A DNA stretch of 13,326 bases from a virus. This document shows, one piece after another, positions 1 to 13,315 of this stretch (position 1 is its first letter; every line of letters starts with the position of its first letter). The notes under the pieces are model-generated. The model was given only the letters and a program-made list of their open reading frames with translations, ran no database searches and was not told where the DNA came from. The position numbers were made by a program, and so were the translations under genes. Location: the UHGV virus genome UHGV-0203667; one strand, 5' to 3'.

Positions 1-531
1 ATGTTATTTCAGAAAGATAAAGAATCAGAAAACAAAAAGCTTTTTAAAGCAATAGTAAAAATGTTCTTTAAGGAGGCCGCACAGTTCGGGGCTACTATCC
101 TGCTTATTGGCCCTTGGGCAATGGCTATCTTCTTTTACCCTGCTACCTTATTTATTGGCAGTAGCAAGTTCGGCAATGGACCGTTTCATGTGGATACTGG
201 TTTTATAGATTTTCTCCTGATCCGCCCTATAAATGCTGTTCTCAATGCTTTCTACTTCCCCACTAGTCTGGAAGGGTGGGCGGTCACCTGGGGCGTTTTA
301 GGCTTAGCATTTGCAATATGGGTGATCGGCTTTTGGTGGAATGCGATCTGTGTTCTCCTTGATATCGATGGCGGAAAAAGCCGTAGAAGCGGTGGTAGCA
401 GTGGAGCAGGTATTTATGCACATGTAGGTACCAGGGGAGCTAGTGTTACCGCAGGTACCCGATTCGCTGGCGGCTGGCTGAGCATAGGCAAACGCGGCGT
501 TAGTTGGAGAAAAAGCAAAAAACTGTTCTGA
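1..531 (+). CDS. Multi-pass membrane protein with Gly/Ser/Arg-rich basic C-terminal tail; function unknown. The ORF touches the window edge, so the true start may lie upstream or at an internal Met
   Basis: The frame is open from base 1 to TGA 529-531. There are three long hydrophobic segments (ILLIGPWAMAIFFYPATLFIG, FIDFLLIRPINAVLNAFYF, WGVLGLAFAIWVIGFWWNAICVLL). A strong intrinsic terminator follows about 8 nt downstream. Confidence 0.6.
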   Translation: MLFQKDKESENKKLFKAIVKMFFKEAAQFGATILLIGPWAMAIFFYPATLFIGSSKFGNGPFHVDTGFIDFLLIRPINAVLNAFYFPTSLEGWAVTWGVLGLAFAIWVIGFWWNAICVLLDIDGGKSRRSGGSSGAGIYAHVGTRGASVTAGTRFAGGWLSIGKRGVSWRKSKKLF

Positions 532-3182: not shown

Positions 3183-3398
3183 ATGGCAAGCAACGGACCG
3201 ACTAGCCCCCTGGTTAGCTGGACTACTGATGAGATCGTCGAAAACGTGCTCAGCGGCAAGTTTTATAAAAATTCTGTTTATGCTTTTATCCGTCGTAATA
3301 AAGGAAAATATCCACACATTGAAGCGGCAATTTTAGAACTGAACCGTCTTCGCCTTGAGCGTGAGCTGGCTAAATACACCAACAACATTGATAAATAA
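3183..3398 (+). CDS. Small hypothetical protein (71 aa)
   Basis: AGGAGG sits 7 nt upstream of the ATG. The C-terminal half is basic and helical. The gene is immediately followed by the rep-like gene. Confidence 0.7.
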   Translation: MASNGPTSPLVSWTTDEIVENVLSGKFYKNSVYAFIRRNKGKYPHIEAAILELNRLRLERELAKYTNNIDK

Positions 3399-3411
3399 TT
3401 ATGGGGGAACT

Positions 3412-4308
3412 ATGGCAAGTAATTACGGGGAGGTTTTTAATCCCCATTTCGAACGCCTCATTCAGTACACTTTTGATAAACCAGTAGCAACAACAATTGC
3501 TAATAAAAAGACTGGAAAAACAAAAGAGCGATTTAATTTAGACCTGATAGAGGTAACAATTTATGGAAAAATGGCAGGTTTTCATTTAAACGGGCAAGAA
3601 ATATTTATCTCAGAGCAGACCTTAGCAAAAATATGTGGTGTGAGTGATAGAAAAATCATCGAATCTATCAAAACTCTGGAAAATGCCGGGCTTATTTCTA
3701 AAGAAAGCCGGAAAGGTATGTCTAACATTTACAAACTGTTAATTACTCCTTCTCAAATCTGCAAAATGTGTGATGAACAGAAGATAGAACCAATGAGTAA
3801 TGCAGGTGGTGAAGATAAACAGCCTCAGGAAGCCCCAAAACAAGCCACACAGCAAGCTAAAAAGGCTAAAGTAGTGCAATTGCCTACCCAAGACACTAAA
3901 GCGCCTCAAATTAACGCTGTTAGTGACAAGCCACGCCGGGGCCGTCCTGTGAAAGATGTAACCGATGGGGGCTGGATTGTCCTGGGTGAGAGTGAAGCTA
4001 AAGATAGAATGCGCTCACTGTGGGAAAGCAAATACAAAGGTTTAAATAAACGTTGCCCGATCCGTTTGTCAAAGATTCAGGAGGATTTTTACACCACAGA
4101 GGAGGTAATACGCCATAAAGGCAATAGAGACGGTGAAATCTGGAAACCGGAAGAATACTGGCATTTAACCAGACCTGTTTTTATTTTTGCAAATAAACTT
4201 ATTGGGATGGGATTTGAAATATTGTTAGATCAAACTTACGGAGATTATCCTGAAATATTGTGGAGAAATGTTAGAAAGAATAAAAAAGGCATTTTAGAGT
4301 TTAGATAA
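3412..4308 (+). CDS. Putative replication-initiator/O-like DNA-binding protein: N-terminal winged-HTH, Q/A/K-rich linker with AT-hook (RRGRP), C-terminal domain
   Basis: The start is moved from 3355 to ATG 3412 (GGGGGA SD; removes the overlap with the 3183 gene). The motif ISEQTLAKICGVSDRKIIESIKTLENAGLISKESRKG is typical of wHTH initiator or DnaD-like N-termini. KPRRGRPVKD is encoded around 3931-3948. The iteron field lies upstream. Confidence 0.6.
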   Translation: MASNYGEVFNPHFERLIQYTFDKPVATTIANKKTGKTKERFNLDLIEVTIYGKMAGFHLNGQEIFISEQTLAKICGVSDRKIIESIKTLENAGLISKESRKGMSNIYKLLITPSQICKMCDEQKIEPMSNAGGEDKQPQEAPKQATQQAKKAKVVQLPTQDTKAPQINAVSDKPRRGRPVKDVTDGGWIVLGESEAKDRMRSLWESKYKGLNKRCPIRLSKIQEDFYTTEEVIRHKGNRDGEIWKPEEYWHLTRPVFIFANKLIGMGFEILLDQTYGDYPEILWRNVRKNKKGILEFR

Positions 4309-5683: not shown

Positions 5684-6118
5684 ATGAATATTGAAGAAAT
5701 GATAGTTGAATTCGAAGAGGGTGATTTCCTGGAAGAAGGGGAGTTTAAATACTCCCGTTTTAAACAGGCGTTATTTAGCAGCGATGATAAACCCCACGTT
5801 AGTGATCTTAACGACGATGATTTATGTCGCTGGGTATGCACCCGCTTATATGAAGATGGAAAGTATACAGGCCAAAACTTTCCAAATCTCTATTTCAAAG
5901 CACAAACATTTGAGGAAGGGCAAAGAGTGAAAAACCTGGTCGATAAAATGCTGTCAGCCGGATATTTGCATAAAGAATTATTAAATCCTAAAGCTGAAAG
6001 CAAGCGCCATTATATTTTTGTGTGGTCTGTGGGGGATAAGTGCCCACTGCATGGGAGTCCTTCCAGGACCTTAGCTAAAGCTAAGCCCGTTGGGTCTGTT
6101 AAGCGTAAAGGCAAATGA
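5684..6118 (+). CDS. Hypothetical protein (144 aa), acidic N-terminus, possible winged-helix C-terminal half
   Basis: ATG 5684 is preferred over 5678 because GAGGG lies 7 nt upstream of it. The stop TGA at 6116-6118 lies just before the next start codon. Confidence 0.7.
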   Translation: MNIEEMIVEFEEGDFLEEGEFKYSRFKQALFSSDDKPHVSDLNDDDLCRWVCTRLYEDGKYTGQNFPNLYFKAQTFEEGQRVKNLVDKMLSAGYLHKELLNPKAESKRHYIFVWSVGDKCPLHGSPSRTLAKAKPVGSVKRKGK

Positions 6119-6308: not shown

Positions 6309-8411
6309 ATGGCAATGAAGGAAGTCGCCAGACTAACAAACGTTATTTACTGGGACTCTGATAAATCCTCCTGGCGAAAAGAAGTTAAGCGCTTGGAGGA
6401 TTATAAAAAATCCTGGAAGAAAGCTACCGACGATATAGCTAAAGCGGATTTTAAATCTAATCAGGCTGTGCTCAGAACACAAAGAACACGCGCTAAGGTG
6501 GAAGAGCAGATCGCCAGAGCACAGAAGAAACAACGTGCTCAGGCTGTCAGCCGTCTGACCGGGGGCAATAATCCGGAGCTCTCCTCTATGCGCAAGTTCT
6601 ATCAGCAGCAAGCCAGAGAGGCCGCCAGACAACAAAAACTGTTAGATCGTAGTGTTGGAGATGTTCAGCACAGAAAAGCACGTGTAGGGGCCAACAGTGC
6701 ACGAATCAGCAGCATGTTTGATGGCTCCCTGGTTGCTCAGTTCCAATCCAGAATTCAAAGAGTTAATGCTGATTATGCTAAAGGGGCTATTAACCTGCAG
6801 ACCTATAATCAGAAAATGGCCCGACTCAGATCTGAAATGAAGATGGCAACAGCAGAGGCCGGAAAATTTCAGAGCAAACTGGATAGAGTTGCGATCACAG
6901 GATCTAAGCTGCATGACAACCTGGGGAAACTAAATTCTACTTTAGGCAAGATAGCTATTGGCCTTACTGCCGCTGGCTGGGGTGTTCAGCGTGCTGTTAG
7001 TGGTGCTATGGGTAGCCTTGCAGATCGCAACAGTGCCTACTTCGGTTTGATGGCACAGAACAAGGATGATAAAGCCAAGACTGATCAGCAGATGGCCTAC
7101 GTCAAAAGAATCTCTTATGACTACGGGATGGATCAGCGTGAGACCGAAGGCGGTTTTATGCGCTTTGCTGCAGCCACACCGAGCATAGAAGAGAAAGATA
7201 AACAGGCTCTTTTTGAGGCTATGGCTATTAAAGGTCGCTCAGTGGGTGCTACCGCAGACCAACAGAACAGGGCTATCGTTGCACTAGGGCAAATATATAG
7301 CAAGGGCGGTCGGGTGTATGCGGAAGAGCTTAAGGGCCAACTTTCTGAAGCCCTGGCAGGTTCTCAGGTAGATTTCACTAAGGCCGCTATCGATGCCGGA
7401 GTCATCAAGAAAGAGGAAGAATTTAATAAAGCCCTTGAAGATGGCAAGATCACCATGGATAAGCTTCTCCCTTCTTTGGTGAAAATCTGGTCTGCAGCCA
7501 AGAATACGAAAGCCTTTGCTGAATCCATGAAACAGCCAGAAGTAGCAATGCAGCGCATGAAAAACAGCTTTAACGAGCTGGCGATTCAGTTTATGGGTGT
7601 TGTGGATCCTGCCGATGGCGTTGTTAGCTTATCTGAATCTCTGATCTCCATCTTCGAAGACCTCACCACTGATATGGACGGCAGCGGGAGCGCGGCAAAA
7701 CAGTTTGGTGAAGCAGTCGGTGCTGCCATGCGGGAGATCATGTATTGGGTAGGCTTCGCTAAGGGATATATCGAGGTCAAGGCTAAAGAGTTCGGCATGA
7801 CCGGATCAGAGGTTGGCGAGCTTATCGGGAAACTAGTAGTCGGCTTAGCTGGTCTGAAAGTTATTACCACACTGCTTTCCCCTCTAACCGGATTTGTTTC
7901 ACTTGTCACCCAACTGATAGCCTTGTTAGGTAAAATCCCTGGTATGAGCAAGCTTATGGCATCTGCCTCAGGTGGAACGGCAACAGGAGCAGCAGTTATC
8001 AGTGCAGGCTCTAACGCTGAAAGAAGCTTCATTGATGGCAAGACGCAGGAAATGAGTAAGGAGAACTCAAAACAGGGTGCTTTGTTTGAGCTGGGAAGAT
8101 TTGTCAGCAATGCTGGCGCACTGTTCACACCTGGCGGTGATACTGGTCCTTTGTTCGATCAGGTCAAAGGCTGGTTTAATAAAGGGCCAACATTGACAGT
8201 AGACACTGGCATCAGACCAACACCAACGGGTGGCATAGCTATCCAGAATGGTGGATATCAACCAGTCCAAGTAAATGTAGCCCCACAAGGTGAGATTTCC
8301 GGCAAATGGGAGATAACCATCGATGAGGGGGGAATTGCCAGGGTGATCCAGAAGGAAGTCAGCGATCAGTTGGATTGGAAAGCCACACAGGAATCTAACC
8401 AGCTTTTCTAA
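6309..8411 (+). CDS. Phage tail tape measure protein (700 aa)
   Basis: The N-terminus is a long K/R/Q/A-rich coiled coil. The central region GQIYSKGGRVYAEELKGQLSEALAG is typical of the tape-measure core domain. A hydrophobic segment LIGKLVVGLAGLKVITTLLSPLTGFVSLVTQLIALLG follows, then a Gly-rich C-terminus. A GAGG SD lies upstream. Confidence 0.85.
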   Translation: MAMKEVARLTNVIYWDSDKSSWRKEVKRLEDYKKSWKKATDDIAKADFKSNQAVLRTQRTRAKVEEQIARAQKKQRAQAVSRLTGGNNPELSSMRKFYQQQAREAARQQKLLDRSVGDVQHRKARVGANSARISSMFDGSLVAQFQSRIQRVNADYAKGAINLQTYNQKMARLRSEMKMATAEAGKFQSKLDRVAITGSKLHDNLGKLNSTLGKIAIGLTAAGWGVQRAVSGAMGSLADRNSAYFGLMAQNKDDKAKTDQQMAYVKRISYDYGMDQRETEGGFMRFAAATPSIEEKDKQALFEAMAIKGRSVGATADQQNRAIVALGQIYSKGGRVYAEELKGQLSEALAGSQVDFTKAAIDAGVIKKEEEFNKALEDGKITMDKLLPSLVKIWSAAKNTKAFAESMKQPEVAMQRMKNSFNELAIQFMGVVDPADGVVSLSESLISIFEDLTTDMDGSGSAAKQFGEAVGAAMREIMYWVGFAKGYIEVKAKEFGMTGSEVGELIGKLVVGLAGLKVITTLLSPLTGFVSLVTQLIALLGKIPGMSKLMASASGGTATGAAVISAGSNAERSFIDGKTQEMSKENSKQGALFELGRFVSNAGALFTPGGDTGPLFDQVKGWFNKGPTLTVDTGIRPTPTGGIAIQNGGYQPVQVNVAPQGEISGKWEITIDEGGIARVIQKEVSDQLDWKATQESNQLF

Positions 8412-8422
8412 TATTGTGATCT

Positions 8423-8438
8423 AAATCAATAAGTTAGC
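8423..8438. repeat. 16-bp exact repeat AAATCAATAAGTTAGC (partner at 692-707)
   Basis: Identical to 692-707. It lies 12 nt after the tape measure stop codon. Confidence 0.6.
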
Positions 8439-8460
8439 CTGACCGGATAAACTCCAGGCA

Positions 8461-8493
8461 AGAAAAAAGCCCCTAAGTGTTAACAAAGGGGCT
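8461..8493 (-). terminator. Rho-independent terminator, strong on the minus strand and weak at best on the plus strand
   Basis: The minus-strand RNA reads AGCCCCU uuguuaacacuu AGGGGCU followed by UUUUUUCU. On the plus strand the stem is followed by CUUCUCC. Confidence 0.75.
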
Positions 8494-8913
8494 CTTCTCC
8501 GGTATCCTTTTGATGCGGGGCAAAACCTGCTAACAAAAATCAACCTCTCGCGAGACTAATGTTAGCAGGTTGCCGGAAGGTAAGTCAACTCCGGCCTATA
8601 AACCTTAAAGCGACTATAAAATTGCCCCGCCAATTGTGATGATCCGACCTTTGAGGCGGGTCCGGTGCCCAGGGGGTGCAGTGATGCACAAACCAGGCAA
8701 CGATAAACAGGCTAACAGTGATAGCGGCGCTCTCTCAGCGCACTAAATCCTAACCAGTCCGGGAAAGAGGCTGGCTCTATCGACCGCTCATGCACGGGAC
8801 AATGCATACCTGATAAAGGATTCTCACAAGGGACCAATCGCGAGAAAAGAAGTGGAAAGGGGCTGATTTGTGGTGTATCACTACGGCCTCAAAAGACACC
8901 CTATTGCCTTTTT
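8494..8913 (-). ncRNA. ORF-free, highly structured roughly 420-nt region between the last minus-strand CDS and its terminator; candidate structured 3' UTR or ncRNA
   Basis: The supplied track has no ORF here. A perfect three-way junction spans 8515-8630: outer stem GCGGGGCAA/TTGCCCCGC (9 bp), inner stem ACCTGCTAACA/TGTTAGCAGGT (11 bp, with a 24-nt loop holding the palindrome TCTCGCGAGA), and inner stem GCCGGA/TCCGGC (6 bp). Further hairpins are GTGCA gtga TGCAC (8676-8689) and GCGCT ctctc AGCGC (8727-8741). The strand is assigned from the terminator orientation only. Confidence 0.4.
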
Positions 8914-9372
8914 TCAGCCTCTCCCCACATTTGACCAGTATTTGATTGCACCGATCAAATCATCATAGTGGCGCATTGCATCATTGAAGCCTTTATAGCT
9001 TGCCCATTGTGGGGAAACCTTGTTGTTGCTGAATTGCCCACTAATCAGGATAGTCTCCAGAATGTCGGCGTATCGCTTGCCAATTCGCTTCCTGACGGCC
9101 TCAGAGCTCCCACCCTTTACGATTGCATTAATCAGGGCTTTTGTGTGTCTCAGGCTCTCATAGAGCATTGCAGCGTGGGCAGATTCCATAAAGGAGCGCT
9201 TAGGCAGATCACCCCACCCCTCAGAATGAATTGCTGCCAATGTGGCGTAATTCAGGCCGCTATAGTGTTTCCCGTCATCCCAGCCAACCGCTACACCTTC
9301 CATCTGTGAGAGCTCTTTATGCAGCTTATCCATCATGCGCTTGTCTATGGTGCAACGGACTTTCGGACTCAT
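8914..9372 (-). CDS. Putative head-tail joining or tail-completion type virion protein (152 aa)
   Basis: ATGA start/stop overlap with the upstream gene. The motif AAIHSEGWGDLPKRSF resembles the HEFG..P.RPF motif of HK97 gp10-like and morphogenesis proteins. This was recognised by eye only. Confidence 0.6.
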   Translation of the reverse strand: MSPKVRCTIDKRMMDKLHKELSQMEGVAVGWDDGKHYSGLNYATLAAIHSEGWGDLPKRSFMESAHAAMLYESLRHTKALINAIVKGGSSEAVRKRIGKRYADILETILISGQFSNNKVSPQWASYKGFNDAMRHYDDLIGAIKYWSNVGRG

Positions 9373-10181
9373 TTGTTGATCTCCGTGATGTCATCAAGCA
9401 ACATGTTGGCCTTATCAATCATCGTTTCGTGGAACTCATTCGACACGACAGACTTATCACCTGCTGCAATCTTTCCCGCTGCCTCTCCCTGTGCATATTC
9501 CCCGCGATGCTTAGCCCTGGTTGATTTCGTAGCAGCATTGCCAGCGTTACTACCCTCTTTAGCACTGTTAACAGCACCCTTTTGCTGTGTTTTATTCACC
9601 TTCTTACTGTTAGTGAAAACTCCGGCATTTTCGACCATCTTCACCTTGAAGGTGCGGAATTCTTCAAAAGTGCAATCAATAGTGATGCAGTCGCCAGAGG
9701 AAGAGCTACGCTTAACTTCACATTTCGTCATGATGAAGTTCTCAAGGAGTCCGACATCTTCACCCACCAGGCTGATAATCTGGCGCTTGTCTCTCATTTC
9801 CATAAGTGCCTGAACAGCGGCAGCAGGGCGCATAGATTCACGGGGATTATCTGGATCAGTGTTCCGGTCGATGTAGTTCTCTTTCCGGATGATATGAGGG
9901 GAAGAGGTAATAATACCCGTAAAGCTGACAGATTTATCTTTAATGACGGCATGGTCTGACATGGTGGTGCCATCCTCGACCGCATAGCTCGATTTCTCAA
10001 CAGGGAACGAATAGCTGACATCAGAGATAGAGTCAAAGAAGATAGCCACATTATCGGTATAGTTGAAGCCATCCATCATATTTTTGTTTTGTGAATATCC
10101 CCCACACATAACAGTGAATGCAGGAGATCTCGACTCAGCTTGTTTTGCAGCTGTCAGAGCATCACTAGCCATATTAAACAT
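9369..10181 (-). CDS. Putative virion structural protein (270 aa) with K/A/G-rich C-terminal region; the N-terminal half is reminiscent of Dit-like/baseplate-type domains (weak call)
   Basis: GGAGG lies upstream. The start may be ATG 10181 or ATG 10172 (MASDALT), which has better SD spacing. It sits inside the structural operon. Confidence 0.6.
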   Translation of the reverse strand: MFNMASDALTAAKQAESRSPAFTVMCGGYSQNKNMMDGFNYTDNVAIFFDSISDVSYSFPVEKSSYAVEDGTTMSDHAVIKDKSVSFTGIITSSPHIIRKENYIDRNTDPDNPRESMRPAAAVQALMEMRDKRQIISLVGEDVGLLENFIMTKCEVKRSSSSGDCITIDCTFEEFRTFKVKMVENAGVFTNSKKVNKTQQKGAVNSAKEGSNAGNAATKSTRAKHRGEYAQGEAAGKIAAGDKSVVSNEFHETMIDKANMLLDDITEINK

Positions 10182-10587: not shown

Positions 10588-11631
10588 TTATTTAGCCTTG
10601 GCTTTTGCCAGAGCAGCGGCGGCGGTGTTTTTAACACTCACTTTAACCACCACCTCGGGCATCATATTCATAAATGCGTATGAGCTCTCGCAAAAGACCT
10701 CGCGCTTAGCTCTTGAATCTTGCATATACATGAAAGCTTCACGTGCAGCGCCGTTTGCCAGCTGCAGATTGCGAGCGCAAGGGCCAAAAAATTGAGTATA
10801 AACACCCATATCGCCCAGTGCATAAGGCTGGAATTGTGGGACCAGATAAGCAGTATTCTCTGGCAGACTATCCATTTGCACCACACGCAGGGCTAAGCCC
10901 GGAATGCGGAAGGTCGGGAAGCCCGGCAGAATATCCTCAGGGAACATCAGACCTTTGTCGGTAATGTTCTGATTGCCGAACAACAGCACTTTACGAAGCA
11001 GCTCGTCAGTCTGAATTGCAGCAAAGAGTTCAGCACGGCAGAACAGGGTGAAACCACGCAGGGCACGAACGACACCACGCTGTTTAACCTTGCTCAGTGC
11101 AACCAGGTCCTGCAGCTGTTTAAGGATATCTTGAGCTAGATCCACTTCAGAGGTGGACTGTTCTACTCCCAGCAGTTCGCACACATTCAGTTCTTTACCC
11201 TTGGTGAGGATAATTTTGTTCTCAAAGAGAGCAAGCTGGCGTGCTTCTTCGTGGGTCTGGCGTAAGCCTTCGCCAAGCTGAATAACACGACGAGCGGTTA
11301 CAGACTCTAAATTCTCTTCGGAATCTTTGCCCGGAACACGGATACCTTGCCAGTCTGACGGGAATATGGCCGAGCTGGCGGCTGTAAAGGCCATGTCGCC
11401 CGTGCCCGTTTCACGCTCATCTGCGGTAATGGTAGCCATCTGTTCACCGTAGCGCGGATACTGACCGAAAGCGGTTTGTTTCACCCTGCGAACTTTGTCG
11501 TACTCAAATTTGAACGTCGAAGAATAGACGGTAGTATTAAACACGTTCATTGCTGAAATAATCTGGTTATCCAGCGGGATATCTTTAATCAGACCACACA
11601 GATCGCGAACTTCGAATTCTTTCTTAGCCAT
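10588..11631 (-). CDS. Major capsid protein, lambda gpE-like family (347 aa)
   Basis: The start is reset to MAKKEFEV at 11631, with AAGGAGG 6 nt upstream. The track start at 11730 gives a Cys-rich extension that overlaps the upstream gene. The size, the position after a roughly 110-aa decoration-like gene, and the C-terminal pattern (...ESSYAFMNMMPEVVVKVSV) resemble lambda gpE (...SAPLMLLADPDEFVSVQLA). Confidence 0.75.
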   Translation of the reverse strand: MAKKEFEVRDLCGLIKDIPLDNQIISAMNVFNTTVYSSTFKFEYDKVRRVKQTAFGQYPRYGEQMATITADERETGTGDMAFTAASSAIFPSDWQGIRVPGKDSEENLESVTARRVIQLGEGLRQTHEEARQLALFENKIILTKGKELNVCELLGVEQSTSEVDLAQDILKQLQDLVALSKVKQRGVVRALRGFTLFCRAELFAAIQTDELLRKVLLFGNQNITDKGLMFPEDILPGFPTFRIPGLALRVVQMDSLPENTAYLVPQFQPYALGDMGVYTQFFGPCARNLQLANGAAREAFMYMQDSRAKREVFCESSYAFMNMMPEVVVKVSVKNTAAAALAKAKAK

Positions 11632-11642
11632 TTTCAACCTCC

Positions 11643-11978
11643 TTATTGTGCAACACGCAAATCGCCATTGCTGGCAGCAACAACAGCGGCTAAGCCGTCT
11701 TTGTCCACATAGGCCGGATTGATGTAGCAACCTTTGTTCGCAACAACGATAAAGGAATCACCAACTTCAGCACGTTCTACAACCAGCAGCGGAGTTTTAT
11801 CGGTGTGCGTTGCTTTAACGAAGGTCTCAACCTCGCCAGCCTCAGTCACCACAACAACAGTGCCAGCCGGAATCTCAGCCTTAACTTTGTTTTTAACTTC
11901 AACGTCGCGAATACTAAATTGCTCATCTGCGGCGTATGAAATGATGTGTCCGCGTGTGCGGATAGTCATATCTCTCAT
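11643..11978 (-). CDS. Putative head decoration/cement protein (111 aa)
   Basis: AGGTGA lies upstream of the ATG. It is a beta-rich roughly 110-aa protein immediately upstream of the capsid gene, the gpD position in lambda. The family assignment is tentative (gpD-like versus DUF2190-like). Confidence 0.65.
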   Translation of the reverse strand: MRDMTIRTRGHIISYAADEQFSIRDVEVKNKVKAEIPAGTVVVVTEAGEVETFVKATHTDKTPLLVVERAEVGDSFIVVANKGCYINPAYVDKDGLAAVVAASNGDLRVAQ

Positions 11979-12452
11979 TTGATCACCTGCGATTTAAATT
12001 AACTCCCCTCAAAGGGCTCAGGTATAACCTCTCAAACCACGACAGGCTCGGGCCGAAAAGTTATGCCGGAAATCTAAAGGGGGATTGATATAAGGAGAGG
12101 GAGATAGCCCCGCACCGTCCAAGCGGGGGCTATTCCATATGGGGAAAACCAACAACAGTTGGCTGATAGTTCACTGCATGGTTACGGTTGCTAGAGAGCA
12201 CTATCACGAAAGGCACTCCCCCGAATCAGTTCAGGCTGCGGTCACATCAGCGGGGAAATACCTTTCGGGATAGCTACCCACACCGAAAACCCGCAAAAGA
12301 AAACTGTGTGGATAACTAGCCCAATAGGAGAATTAATCGACCACTCTAAGATGATCAGGGTAGTGTTATTTATAAGGCGGCACCGCTACCTGGTCGCCGT
12401 TACTTTGGAGGAAAATACGGCAAATCACCTTCGCTAAATGATTCACGGTATA
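11979..12452 (-). other. Roughly 470-nt ORF-free structured leader between the LexA-controlled promoter and the head genes
   Basis: There is no ATG ORF with an SD. Structures include a 10-bp bulged stem ATAGCCCCGC/GCGGGGGCTAT (12104-12133), CCAAC aaca GTTGG (12149-12162), CCACAC/GTGTGG (12279-12311) and others. No hairpin followed by a U tract was seen on the minus strand. Confidence 0.5.
12307..12315 (-). promoter_or_regulatory. Perfect DnaA box (TTATCCACA on the minus strand)
   Basis: The plus strand reads TGTGGATAA at 12307-12315. It is a single copy, so chance cannot be excluded. Confidence 0.3.
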
Positions 12453-12470
12453 CTGTATATTATATCAGTA
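12451..12470. promoter_or_regulatory. LexA (SOS) box
   Basis: TACTGTATATTATATCAGTA keeps CTG-N10-CAG intact and matches 15/20 positions of TACTGTATATATATACAGTA. All mismatches are A/T swaps in the spacer. It overlaps the -10 element and the start site of the minus-strand promoter. Confidence 0.8.
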
Positions 12471-12487
12471 TTTACTCACATTGTCAA
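12459..12487 (-). promoter_or_regulatory. Perfect consensus sigma70 promoter (TTGACA-17-TATAAT) directed leftward toward the head operon
   Basis: The minus strand reads TTGACA atgtgagtaaatactga TATAAT. The -35 is at 12482-12487 and the -10 at 12459-12464. The predicted start site is near 12452. Confidence 0.85.
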
Positions 12488-12660: not shown

Positions 12661-12757
12661 ATCTTTTGATCAATATCAATGTTTTCCTGGGATTTGCCCG
12701 GCTATAGTTCGAATCAAGGAAGGGGAGCATTGATAGCACCAAAACCGAACAAACAAA

Positions 12758-12772
12758 TCAACTTCTCGCAAA
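12758..12772 (+). repeat. Conserved 5'-UTR motif TCAACTTCTCGCAAA (exact copy at 13301-13315; related TCAACCTCTCGCGAG at 8540-8554)
   Basis: The 15-mer is identical at both sites, on the same strand, and each is followed by a purine-rich SD-like sequence (AAGGTGA or AGGGG). Confidence 0.55.
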
Positions 12773-12783
12773 AGGTGATAGTT

Positions 12784-12906
12784 ATGGGTATCAAGAACAG
12801 TGCCAGCGCATGGCAAAAGGCCAGGTTTCATCACCCACACATTGTTAAGGCAATTGAGGTGGTTGGAGTGTTAGCCCTGATGTTAGCTCTGTGTGTGGAG
12901 GTGTGA
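12784..12906 (+). CDS. Small (40 aa) membrane protein
   Basis: AAGGTGA lies 5 nt upstream of ATG 12784. The translation is MGIKNSASAWQKARFHHPHIVKAIEVVGVLALMLALCVEV, with a hydrophobic C-terminus. The track start at 12679 has no SD and would translate through the conserved UTR motif. Confidence 0.5.
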   Translation: MGIKNSASAWQKARFHHPHIVKAIEVVGVLALMLALCVEV

Positions 12907-13008: not shown

Positions 13009-13269
13009 ATGACGGGGGCTAAAGATATCAGGAGACTGAGGGAAGAGCTGATAGCTGAAATTAAAGCTAAGGCAAAGCAAATGGAGATAGCCGCGCAAAT
13101 GGATGTAGCGGAACAGATGTACAAGATGGTTGAAGAGGGAACACCACGACAGGTTATCGCTAAAACCTTCGGTGTGGGGATCGCCACCGTGCACAGAAGG
13201 CTGAAAGCCTATGCCGACTACCACAACATTGAGAGAGGGGAGGATGGGAGATTTAAGAAGAATAAATAG
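13009..13269 (+). CDS. Small HTH DNA-binding protein (86 aa), coiled-coil N-terminus
   Basis: GGAG lies upstream of the ATG. The HTH segment is TPRQVIAKTFGVGIATVHRRLKAY. Confidence 0.75.
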   Translation: MTGAKDIRRLREELIAEIKAKAKQMEIAAQMDVAEQMYKMVEEGTPRQVIAKTFGVGIATVHRRLKAYADYHNIERGEDGRFKKNK

Positions 13270-13300
13270 TAGGAACAGTCCAACAGGTTATTAACTAAAT

Positions 13301-13315
13301 TCAACTTCTCGCAAA
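13301..13315 (+). repeat. Second copy of the 5'-UTR motif TCAACTTCTCGCAAA
   Basis: Identical to 12758-12772. It is followed by GGGG, and the window ends before any start codon. Confidence 0.5.

Follow-up and report, generated by a model that had tools for sequence, protein, structure and literature searches.

An uncatalogued family of structured RNAs with a pseudoknotted core on small mobile elements of Enterobacteriaceae

Described RNAs and the locus

ROOL, GOLLD and HEARO/omega RNA are large structured non-coding RNAs found on mobile elements; when they were discovered, their function was unknown. The RNA described here resembles them in being hundreds of nucleotides long, multi-helical and pseudoknotted, in residing on phage-related or mobile DNA, and in combining a conserved core with variable peripheral insertions. 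However, it has no Rfam sequence or structure match, its architecture differs, its hosts are Enterobacteriaceae and it has no constant nuclease neighbor. CpxQ and SroC are regulatory small RNAs derived from 3' UTRs in enterobacteria; like them, our RNA lies behind an operon's last CDS, runs to an intrinsic terminator and exposes a conserved sequence complementary to the translation-initiation regions of other genes. Unlike them, it is five to ten times longer, has a covarying pseudoknotted core and predicted targets, and belongs to a new family whose other members are not 3' UTRs.

P4 CI RNA and P1/P7 C4 RNA (RF01695) are RNAs of RNA-based immunity. A satellite RNA with a short sequence repeated at two other sites of the element is common to these systems and ours, but the RF01695 match is absent, and our RNA would act at ribosome-binding regions, not in its own transcript's leader. 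Here the repeats are direct, on the strand that encodes the RNA; its pairing partners would therefore be opposite-strand transcripts. The phi29 pRNA (RF00044) is also phage-associated and has a three-way junction, and a palindromic loop in our RNA could allow loop-loop contacts. However, there is no RF00044 match, the host, phage type and size differ, ring-forming complementary loops are not conserved here (the palindrome is lost in the relative L008), and what the family conserves lies outside the junction. Finally, IS110 bridge and seek RNAs (reviewed in PMC13604230) are structured RNAs at the edge of a mobile element near a recombinase. Our RNA shares the structure, the edge position and the nearby recombinase, but there is no IS110-type transposase, the neighbors are structural genes or serine/tyrosine recombinases, the recombinases are of unrelated classes or absent, and guide-like complementarity to the adjacent tRNA regions was not found above 8 nt.

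The window (the whole stretch of DNA analyzed, 13,326 nt) is a 13-kb E. coli plasmid with homologues of the capsid, neck, tail-initiator and tape-measure proteins of rV5-like phages, and is therefore probably a phage satellite. The region of interest lies between the 3' end of the tape-measure (TMP) gene at 8411 and the last minus-strand CDS, which stops at 8914, where the initial annotation had placed it. That annotation spoke of a head module on the minus strand; head genes are indeed there, but the module, made up of capsid, neck and tail-initiator genes, is broader than the label. Single-protein searches for related loci gave no matches, a profile search of IMG/VR returned large rV5-like phages only, and a literature search yielded nothing relevant on an rV5 satellite or a recombinase-associated RNA.

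Constraint and architecture of the RNA

No other part of the replicon has diverged less than the RNA stretch, whose nucleotide-level constraint exceeds that of every plasmid gene. Across six relatives, divergence per site was 0.016-0.018 in 8551-8850 and 0.025-0.42 elsewhere, and L008 retains the region though its neighboring protein is just 50% identical. Measured against shuffled sequences, the fold z-scores of 8412-8913 were -4.46 (minus strand) and -3.82 (plus strand), and the three-way junction alone reached -5.33 on the minus strand. The initial annotation had judged the region more organized than a spacer and had staked this on conservation of its stems in related elements. The region folds far better than shuffles, its helices covary, and the stems are kept in relatives with compensatory changes. 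The region was also rightly called ORF-free, as mechanical ORFs between 8411 and 8914 were just 40-41 aa and had no matches in Pfam or PHROGs. Close relatives carry 1-nt indels within the region; the sole ORF that escapes them (8712-8837) has its frame broken in L008 by a 1-nt indel between two conserved blocks.

The conserved unit is a pseudoknotted core of about 250 nt at 8634-8909 on the minus strand, upstream of the three-way junction. Its parts are the long-range helices P1 and P3, the hairpins H3 and Ha, and P2, and near-invariant boxes join them:

8461-8909, minus strand: whole structured RNA from 5' box to terminator end, about 450 nt; least diverged stretch, with covariation
8900-8909, minus strand: 5' box AGGCAAUAGG, about 4 nt before P1
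8886-8895, minus strand: P1 5' strand CUUUUGAGGC, partner 8648-8657
8648-8657, minus strand: P1 3' strand GCCUCAAAGG, with CCCG directly before it
8877-8884, minus strand: P3 5' strand GUAGUGAU, partner 8715-8722, 1 nt after P1
8715-8722, minus strand: P3 3' strand AUCACUGU, partner 8877-8884
8818-8829, minus strand: P2 (pseudoknot) 5' strand UUGUGAGAAUCC, partner 8634-8645, crossing P1
8634-8645, minus strand: P2 3' strand GGAUCAUCACAA, beginning 2 nt after the P1 3' strand
8789-8808, minus strand: hairpin H3 (UAUGCA/UGCAUG), with conserved UUAUC directly before it
8752-8776, minus strand: hairpin Ha (AGCCAGCC/GGaCUGGUU), with conserved loop CUCUUUCCCGG, then GUUAGGAU
8699-8712, minus strand: box GCCUGUUUAUC (8702-8712), overlapping the 3' strand of helix 4
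8724-8746, minus strand: variable insertion 1, hairpin GCGCU-loop-AGCGC
8664-8693, minus strand: variable insertion 2, holding a GTGA-loop hairpin

In alignment A4, 75 pairs in 9 helices were 98.7% paired, and 13 pairs showed double changes against 1.5 ± 1.1 in shuffles (none of 500 shuffles reached 13; slid controls gave 2 or fewer); independent lineages are few and many rows near-identical, and pair counts refer to sequences, not evolutionary events. Up to 12 lineages contribute the compensatory changes behind the helices. With strands chosen by eye beside conserved boxes, P1 kept 7-10 of its 10 pairs across 12 lineages, each position showing 2-4 pair types, and P3 kept 7-8 of 8, its first pair being G.U in 10 of the 12. 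The window has 10/10 and 8/8 of these pairs, respectively, in a layout common to all 12 lineages.

For P2, we found six compensatory pairs against L008, a relative independent of L053, and P2 replaced a local hairpin (UUCUCGCGA/UUGUGAGAA) from the first alifold prediction. We discarded another possible partner of the 5' strand, AUCAAAAGGA, for want of conservation in L008. Equivalent helices between tail and interior were present in L022, L014, L049, L051 and L053; P2-type helices thus occur in six lineages with differing sequences, and in L049 and L051 the 5' strand may not occupy a homologous position. H3 showed double changes at 4 of 6 pairs (8 sequences) with an invariant closing U.G, and Ha at three pairs with one invariant G.U; in CP134895, CCAG/CUGG of Ha is replaced by CAAG/CUUG. 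Together the two hairpins had 22 double-change cells versus 8.7. Helix 4 (8699-8710 paired with 8777-8788) carries three one-sided changes of the G.U/G-C type, and the box GCCUGUUUAUC is invariant or nearly so in all lineages.

The 13-kb family, L008, the 20-kb family and L057 all retain the 5' box as AG(G/A)CAAUA(G/C), and L053 has the close variant GGACAAUAG; the box may be a weak -10-like element or mark where the RNA starts. Insertion 1 is absent in L008, L053 and L054, and its loop (GAGAG/GAUUG) varies among close relatives. The GTGA-loop hairpin that the annotation described is present at about 8677-8690, but it sits in an insertion that L008 lacks and was read on the strand disfavored by the rest of the evidence.

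Downstream of the core is a 3' domain:

8515-8630, minus strand: three-way junction, stems of 9, 12 and 6 bp
8515-8523/8622-8630: junction stem, 9 bp
8524-8535/8560-8571: junction stem (long arm), 12 bp
8572-8577/8590-8595: junction stem, 6 bp
8536-8559: long-arm loop, 24 nt, containing TCTCGCGAGA
8461-8493, minus strand: intrinsic terminator, AGCCCC/GGGGCU then U6

Much of this domain is as first annotated, including the 9- and 6-bp stems, the 24-nt loop with the palindrome TCTCGCGAGA and the CTATAAA repeats (at 8596 and 8614), although the second stem has 12 bp rather than the claimed 11. Seven of the 27 junction pairs had double changes, compared with 1.6 ± 1.0 for shuffles and no more than 1 for slid controls, and 97.6% of cells were paired. 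A covariance model (R1) built without L008 found L008 at 33.6 bits (E = 2.8e-6), where the 10-nt palindrome of the loop is reduced to CGCG. The terminator likewise agrees with the annotation, being readable on the minus strand only, and L008 keeps it with a compensatory change; it escaped a simple terminator scan on account of a loop longer than 8 nt. However, the junction was absent from the 20-kb family and the phage loci searched. It is a lineage-specific 3' domain only, missing in most family members, and the conserved pseudoknotted core upstream had gone unmentioned in the annotation.

Distribution, strand and classification

A second covariance model (R2) was built solely from copies on chromosomal islands and on 2.7- and 4-kb plasmids (L053-L056). 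R2 found 8731-8821 on the minus strand of the window (the segment with H3 and Ha) at 29.2 bits (E = 1.5e-5); the two models, each made without the lineage tested, therefore recover one another's members. In gut bacteria, the core also occurs on 20-kb plasmids, on 2.7- and 4-kb plasmids and in islands adjoining tRNA genes, and partial matches were present in 92 of 5426 complete E. coli genomes. Carrier strains include E. coli 190 (NZ_CP020521), which has the plasmid, and the laboratory strain NC101, whose chromosomal copy is at about 3233455. The family extends beyond phage-like plasmids. Pattern scans with the conserved blocks across IMG/VR, JGI metagenomes and GTDB genomes returned only the close relatives L012 and L013 and one chance match.

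The surroundings differ among these elements. Island copies lie at the extreme island edge beside tRNA-Gly or tRNA-Leu, oriented toward the junction. On the 2.7-kb plasmid, the sole annotated gene is a serine recombinase that adjoins the RNA, and on the 4-kb plasmid the RNA is next to a recombinase and three further genes. In the islands and on these two plasmids the RNA stands by itself, and on the 20-kb plasmids a terminator and an antisense ORF separate it from the upstream gene. On the 20-kb plasmids and in the island loci L053 and L054, the RNA has beside it a small basic ORF of 51-54 aa, which belongs to no Pfam or PHROG family and has no homologue in the 13-kb plasmid.

Judged from the aligned sequences, the RNA is encoded on the minus strand, an assignment fixed by invariant G.U pairs: the U.G in H3 and the G.U in Ha are invariant, alongside the G.U that opens P3 in most lineages. 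The terminator has its functional reading on this strand only, the RNA keeps one orientation behind a homologue of a 152-aa gene in three plasmid families, and R1 and R2 match one strand only. A tally of G.U pairs predicted for both strands did not favor the minus strand and was uninformative; the local 5' hairpin and the GTGA hairpin fit the plus strand slightly better.

A scan with Rfam 15, as the annotation had proposed, gave 0 matches in the window at the gathering threshold, and in the island and small-plasmid loci L053-L058 only tRNAs and an unrelated STnc550. With permissive E values, 8380-8960 had only sub-threshold, terminator-like matches, and L008, L051 and L052 had none. Searches for tRNAs, tmRNAs and tRNA-like structures found genuine tRNAs beside islands only. 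Constraint, covarying helices, the lack of an Rfam family and the position after an operon all support the original suggestion of a novel ncRNA or structured 3' UTR. On the minus strand, 8461-8909 encodes a member of an uncatalogued family of structured ncRNAs, with no Rfam family and no describing paper found; the explanation as a whole, which takes in family, production and action together, we consider fairly probable.

Probable production, candidate action and alternative explanations

The minus-strand module has a strong candidate promoter:

12459-12487, minus strand: sigma-70 promoter, consensus TTGACA-17-TATAAT, TG-extended; would drive the operon reading into the RNA

In the 13-kb plasmid, the RNA is physically a 3' UTR because it directly follows the last gene of this promoter-driven operon and ends at the terminator. 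Its sequence context makes it likely that the RNA is transcribed from 12487-12459 as the tail of the capsid/neck/tail-initiator operon and may then be trimmed, the product being a stable RNA that would start near the 5' box. For lineages in which a 3' UTR position is excluded, the sequence immediately upstream of the RNA showed no clear promoter.

A purely cis-acting 3' UTR, protecting the structural mRNA from exonucleases and serving convergent termination with no role in trans, would agree with the strong operon promoter, with an RNA that follows immediately on the last CDS and with a terminator pointed toward the TMP gene. We nevertheless consider it unlikely: one hairpin would suffice for protection, as against a 250-nt pseudoknotted core with invariant joining sequences, the 20-kb plasmids interpose a terminator and an antisense ORF before the RNA, and the copies on islands and on 2.7- and 4-kb plasmids are free-standing.

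Returning to an RNA that acts in trans, we tentatively propose that the folded core could serve its mobile element as a platform; its partner, probably a protein, would be shared by this group of small hitch-hiking elements. RNAs this elaborate are usually ribozymes, guide or scaffold RNAs, or regulators that sequester proteins. More specifically, the core might be the RNA subunit of a ribonucleoprotein for these elements, or might itself be catalytic, although we regard this as improbable. Candidate steps would be RNA-assisted recombination or integration near tRNA genes, or the hijacking of helper-phage assembly or packaging. A CsrA sponge was dropped, since an estimate by eye puts about 8 GGA motifs in about 450 nt, roughly the chance number.

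In the 13-kb plasmid, the long-arm loop offers a possible second activity:

8537-8551, minus strand: long-arm loop motif GCGAGAGGUUGAUUU, with copies at 12755-12769 and 13298-13312
12755-12769, plus strand: candidate target box AAAUCAACUUCUCGC, 4 nt before the Shine-Dalgarno (SD) sequence of an unannotated 40-aa hydrophobic ORF
13298-13312, plus strand: second candidate target box AAUUCAACUUCUCGC, just before the SD of a 176-aa membrane-protein gene (1-531)

The 14-15-nt motif is present in 3 copies per plasmid, including the divergent L009, and each extra copy immediately precedes an opposite-strand SD and ATG. The box at 12755-12769 is complementary to the loop over 15 bp with one G.U and is kept in every full-length relative; L008 retains the CGCGAGAGGUU portion of the loop motif. 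The exposed loop would pair with the two boxes immediately ahead of the ribosome-binding sites of the genes for the 40-aa peptide and the 176-aa membrane protein, both in a divergent HTH operon, so that expression of the structural operon would damp their translation. We hold this to be possible but doubtful. At 22.3 bits, the loop-box match does not exceed the best matches that arise by chance (shuffle mean 23.7), and the case is therefore one of position and conservation, judged post hoc. A similarity to type I toxin-antitoxin systems is the small hydrophobic ORF (40 aa, 12784-12906), which has a hydrophobic C-terminus and a good SD; the complementarity, at the strength of chance matches, ends 4 nt before that SD. 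Because the junction domain is missing in most members, pairing through the loop cannot explain the conserved core.

By analogy with the logic of IS110 bridge RNAs, the RNA might act as cofactor or guide when the element recombines site-specifically, helping a small recombinase to choose or synapse its sites. The edge-of-island position beside tRNA-Gly or tRNA-Leu, pointing at the junction, would suit this, as would a small serine or tyrosine recombinase usually within a few kilobases, the recombinase beside the RNA on the 2.7- and 4-kb plasmids, and the 86-aa HTH protein kept in the 13-kb plasmid, which resembles an invertase C-terminus. Yet the recombinase classes differ (small tyrosine, small serine and a 580-aa large serine), one island copy shows no recombinase within 4 kb, and the 13-kb plasmid has no catalytic recombinase although the RNA is its best-conserved segment. 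Between the RNA and the neighboring tRNA regions, complementarity never exceeded 8 nt, in cognate and non-cognate combinations alike, a comparison that short split guides could escape, and an att duplication was not found in the fetched flanks. We therefore rate a recombination guide as rather improbable.

Satellites must carry DNA sites recognized by their helper, and such sites are strongly conserved. The region could accordingly be conserved as DNA, as a helper-phage pac/cos site, an attachment or resolution site, or an invertible segment; recombinases are close by, and P1 resembles inverted repeats 170-560 bp apart. However, several nested and crossing helices covary, which goes beyond one repeat pair, conserved G.U pairs and one-sided G.U/G-C changes are meaningless in duplex DNA, and the covariance models' restriction to one strand also points to RNA. 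Similarity and complementarity of the RNA to the complete rV5-like genome CP057073 were not above shuffles, the 5' box was not enriched there, and the window had no DNA similarity to any of 50,697 phage records. Orientation was the same in 11 of 11 close relatives. Together these observations make a DNA-level site quite improbable.

A replication element, either a ColE1 RNA II-like primer or a second origin, is slightly less probable again. It would account for the RNA being the most conserved part of a small plasmid and for an RNA-bearing 2.7-kb plasmid without a recognizable rep gene. Unlike ColE1 RNA II/RNA I, though, our RNA has no RNAI or other Rfam match, and a strong terminator ends it with no run into an origin. 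Iterons at 2213-2322, about 6 kb from the RNA, adjoin a Rep-like gene, and the RNA region was therefore rejected as the replication origin. The decayed gene raised in the initial annotation, such as a lost distal tail gene that might be expected after the tape-measure gene, has a negligible probability despite a 75-aa ORF called over the 5' part in L008, since the lineages share no ORF, frame-breaking indels fall between and within conserved blocks, Pfam and PHROG matches are absent, intact genes are less conserved than the region, and substitutions preserve pairing.

To our knowledge, E. coli is the bacterium most thoroughly mined for non-coding RNAs, and despite that mining a pseudoknotted RNA of about 250 nt has no Rfam family. 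It is a defined, testable RNA, with coordinates, a structure model, two covariance models and carrier strains, and it is a candidate handle on the control of poorly known small mobile elements. If the core does prove to be a ribonucleoprotein subunit or a catalyst, it would represent a new functional RNA class in the mobile elements of Enterobacteriaceae.

A structured, gene-free stretch on a 13-kb plasmid

A DNA search of the phage collection with the window returned no match. The region of interest has 95-99% identity to E. coli plasmids that are circular, non-mobilizable and 13.2-13.7 kb long, and the window is itself a complete or near-complete 13-kb plasmid of this kind. NZ_CP043822.1 (39,610 bp) carries the region in three copies, probably reflecting either a trimeric form of the 13-kb plasmid or an artefact of assembly.

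Plasmid features, by window position
3355-4308: Rep-like HTH protein
6309-8411, plus strand: tape-measure protein (TMP) gene
8461-8493, minus strand: terminator
8515-8630: three-way junction with stems of 9, 12 and 6 bp
8914-9372, minus strand: 152-aa protein of neck/tail-completion type
9369-10181, minus-strand operon: Dit-like protein (tail-tube-initiator type)
10588-11730, minus-strand operon: major capsid protein
12487-12459, minus strand: perfect consensus sigma-70 promoter, TG-extended

The Dit-like protein shares ~50% identity with the "tail tube initiator" of rV5-like myoviruses and the 152-aa protein shares 45% identity with a head-tail-region protein of an rV5-like genome, while genes for terminase, portal, sheath and tube were seen neither among the ORFs scanned nor in the relatives' annotation. 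From this combination, we infer that the plasmid looks like a satellite or mini-phage of rV5-like (Vequintavirinae-type) phages; a literature search for such a satellite found no paper describing the plasmid. The promoter at 12487-12459 is predicted to drive the structural operon, whose end lies in the region of interest, and an untranslated leader of ~470 nt (11979-12452) separates this promoter from the operon's first gene. An array of four ~21-nt iterons (ACTACTGAAGATTTCTCACTA; 2213-2322, spacing 23-43 nt) lies ~1 kb upstream of the Rep-like gene and is the likely origin of replication.

The TMP gene and the last minus-strand gene converge on a gap of ~500 nt which, as the initial annotation held, contains no real ORF, just mechanical ones of 40-41 aa. 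The minus-strand terminator, the 9- and 6-bp junction stems, the palindrome TCTCGCGAGA in a 24-nt junction loop, two CTATAAA repeats and a GTGA-loop hairpin were all found as described there; the middle junction stem has 12 bp, not 11. The description of the region as highly organised was also borne out, as it folds better than dinucleotide shuffles (minus-strand z-score -4.46, plus-strand z-score -3.82; -5.33 for the junction alone, minus strand). The proposed Rfam scan matched no family at gathering thresholds, with sub-threshold terminator-like matches only, and searches of the region for tRNA and tmRNA found none. In five relatives (CP134895, CP074841, CP035869, CP178698 and locus L013), an extra insertion of ~51 nt directly after the TMP stop codon (between 8411 and 8412; columns 32-82 of alignment A1) forms two or three small hairpins and occurs in two sequence variants.

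Eight close plasmids differ from one another at the ends of both flanking genes and hardly at all in the non-coding stretch. In a whole-plasmid comparison with six relatives, 8551-8850 was the least diverged segment of the replicon, with 0.016-0.018 differences per site versus 0.025-0.42 elsewhere. The few substitutions tend to keep pairing: for example, CCAG/CUGG becomes CAAG/CUUG in CP134895, and in another hairpin the changes are confined to the loop. This pattern argues that the region is selected as nucleotide sequence.

The three-way junction and a pseudoknotted core

A protein search with the 152-aa protein led to an ENA contig (L008) that encodes a relative with 50% identity; the non-coding DNA downstream of that gene aligns with the window minus strand in conserved blocks and lacks two of the window's hairpin regions. 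All three junction stems carry compensatory changes between the window family and L008. A covariance model built from the E. coli family only (R1) detects L008 at 33.6 bits (E 2.8e-6; covariance-model E-values here are rough, from a shortened calibration). The junction alignment has 27 pairs, 97.6% paired, with 7 double-change pairs versus 1.6+-1.0 in shuffles (0/500 as high) and at most 1 in slid controls. R1 had no match in the 20-kb plasmids described below or in the rV5-like phage loci searched. Conservation of the stems in related elements holds, by compensation, in L008 and fails in those two groups; the junction is real but lineage-specific.

Upstream of the junction, in the minus-strand reading, a second set of helices makes up the conserved core.

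Helices of the core, all minus strand
8895-8886 / 8657-8648: P1, CUUUUGAGGC / GCCUCAAAGG
8884-8877 / 8722-8715: P3, GUAGUGAU / AUCACUGU, one nucleotide inward of P1
8808-8789: H3 hairpin
8776-8752: Ha hairpin
8645-8634 / 8829-8818: P2, GGAUCAUCACAA / UUGUGAGAAUCC, starting two nucleotides past the P1 3' strand

Because P2 crosses P1, the predicted fold is a pseudoknot. The full model (alignment A4) has 75 pairs, 98.7% paired, and 13 double-change pairs versus 1.5+-1.1 in shuffles (0/500 as high; slid controls at most 2), with six in P2 by itself. Between the helices are near-invariant, single-stranded boxes: AG(G/A)CAAUAG, UUAUC, GUUAGGAU, GCCUGUUUAUC and CCCG. Within 8865-8895 (minus), the P1 5' strand also has a local alternative partner, which co-varies in L008 (GAGGCCG/CGGCCUC) and in the 20-kb plasmids L022 (GGAGU/ACUCC) and L014 (AGAGG/CCUCU) and pairs less well in the window; this hints at two mutually exclusive folds.

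Together with the relatives described below, these results point to a structured RNA family that has a pseudoknotted core and is new with respect to Rfam and the literature searched.

Carriers of the RNA family

The carriers identified are small Enterobacteriaceae mobile elements, this 13-kb plasmid among them. A second plasmid family, of 20 kb (L014, CP057043.1; contigs L022, L049 and L051), has Dit-like, TMP-like and 155-aa genes; the 1.0-1.4 kb beyond them is non-coding and shares with the window the 5' box, the GCCUGUUUAU box, P1 and P3. Here the P1 strands lie 400-560 nt apart, the core is enlarged to 600-700 nt, and P1 covaries (GGAGUC/GACUCC, GAGGUC/GACCUC, GACUC/GAGUC). These plasmids also encode a small tyrosine recombinase, an HNH endonuclease and an AntA/AntB-like protein. 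The tail following P1 pairs back into the interior in all lineages, with differing sequences.

Through a 37-nt match to Ha, two islands were reached: L053, next to tRNA-Gly in an E. coli chromosome, and L054, on a K. pneumoniae plasmid. Each has a compact ~260-nt core with P1, P3, P2, H3 and Ha. With an island copy as blastn query, 92 of 5426 complete E. coli genomes gave partial matches, most of them on the chromosome and without annotation, and two small plasmids were found, from Cronobacter (2.7 kb; L055, NZ_CP098776.1, 2705 bp) and Enterobacter (4 kb; L056, NZ_CP083840.1, 3995 bp). A covariance model built only from these four copies, L053-L056 (R2), gives a minus-strand hit at window 8731-8821 (29.2 bits, E 1.5e-5) and also detects L008, L009 (a divergent relative) and CP134895. 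On the R2 alignment, H3 and Ha are 98.2% paired versus 79% in shuffles, with 22 double-change cells versus 8.7. Across 12 lineages, with strands picked by eye beside the conserved boxes, P1 keeps 7-10 of 10 pairs and P3 7-8 of 8, with up to 4 pair types per position; the independent lineages behind the covariation are few.

In islands, the RNA sits at the very edge of the element, pointing to the neighbouring tRNA gene. Downstream of the RNA in L053 (~5745-5800, minus) lies GCGGGCGTAGTACAATGGGTAG, similar to the 5' portion of the neighbouring tRNA-Gly but oppositely oriented; ARAGORN does not call a tRNA there. A recombinase is usually near the RNA, and its class varies.

Recombinases near the RNA
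L054-L058: small serine recombinases
L053 and the 20-kb plasmids: small tyrosine recombinases
L060: 580-aa serine recombinase

At another locus, L059, no recombinase was seen within 4 kb of the RNA. L055 has a single annotated gene, which runs convergent to the RNA and encodes a ~206-aa serine recombinase, and no recognisable rep gene was found; L056 has a ~210-aa recombinase beside the RNA and three other annotated genes. Both plasmids may have arisen as circles excised from an integrative element. In the 20-kb plasmids, a conserved small basic ORF (51-54 aa) runs divergently from the RNA, and its homologue adjoins the RNA in L053 and L054; the 13-kb plasmid has none.

Strand, competing readings and possible function

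The minus strand is well supported, but not proven, as the RNA strand. The terminator reads as a minus-strand signal only, and both covariance models give full-length matches on that strand only. The closing U.G of H3 and a G.U in Ha are invariant (8/8 sequences), the first pair of P3 is G.U in 10 of 12 lineages, helix 4 changes via G.U to G-C steps, and RNA orientation relative to the upstream gene is identical in three plasmid families. A tally limited to pairs predicted on both strands did not discriminate, and two hairpins are slightly better when read on the plus strand.

The initial proposal of an ncRNA or structured 3' UTR is supported; the rivals named were a cis-acting 3' UTR, a recombination cofactor, a DNA site, a replication element and a decayed gene. 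A duplex-DNA site is improbable: a single repeat pair could serve for recombination, but helices that nest and cross and keep their wobble pairs could not. A bridge-RNA-like role, though conceivable, is not supported, since the RNA showed no complementarity above 8 nt and no cognate preference at adjacent tRNA regions. An iteron origin was rejected, the iterons being elsewhere on the plasmid, as was a copy of helper-phage sequence, with no match in the phage collection and none above shuffles to a complete rV5-like genome (CP057073). A coding region, decayed or intact, was dismissed on frame-breaking indels, no shared ORF and no protein family match.

The long junction arm's loop, GCGAGAGGUUGAUUU (8551-8537), has two further same-strand copies, at 12769-12755 and 13312-13298, and the same set of three is present in every full-length relative, L009 included. 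In the plus-strand reading, each extra copy is directly followed on its 3' side by a Shine-Dalgarno sequence and a start codon.

Genes downstream of the extra copies
12784-12906, plus strand: unannotated 40-aa ORF, MGIKNSASAWQKARFHHPHIVKAIEVVGVLALMLALCVEV, with a good Shine-Dalgarno and a hydrophobic C-terminus
1-531, plus strand: 176-aa membrane-protein gene, downstream of the second extra copy

The 40-aa product could be a small membrane peptide or toxin. Its ORF (upstream) and the 176-aa gene flank a gene for an 86-aa HTH protein (13009-13269, plus), which is similar to serine invertases in their C-terminal DNA-binding domain and has no catalytic domain; the 176-aa protein, encoded next, looks like a multi-pass membrane protein. 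Two sigma-70-like promoter matches also lie inside the RNA on the minus strand (8559-8588 and 8613-8640; TTGACT-18-TAACAT with TG, and ATCACA-16-TATAGT). L008 retains the former as TTGACT-16-TAGTAT; from this promoter match a ~90-nt short RNA would begin at the conserved loop motif.

Given the position of the motif copies directly 5' of both Shine-Dalgarno sequences, the loop could base-pair at each of the two translation-initiation regions, forming 15 bp including one G.U at the 40-aa ORF and 12 bp at the 176-aa gene; the bare match is at chance level, and the proposal is argued post hoc from position and conservation. Our best guess is that the core is a trans-acting RNA serving the element, probably via a protein partner, to which this lineage would have added an antisense arm.
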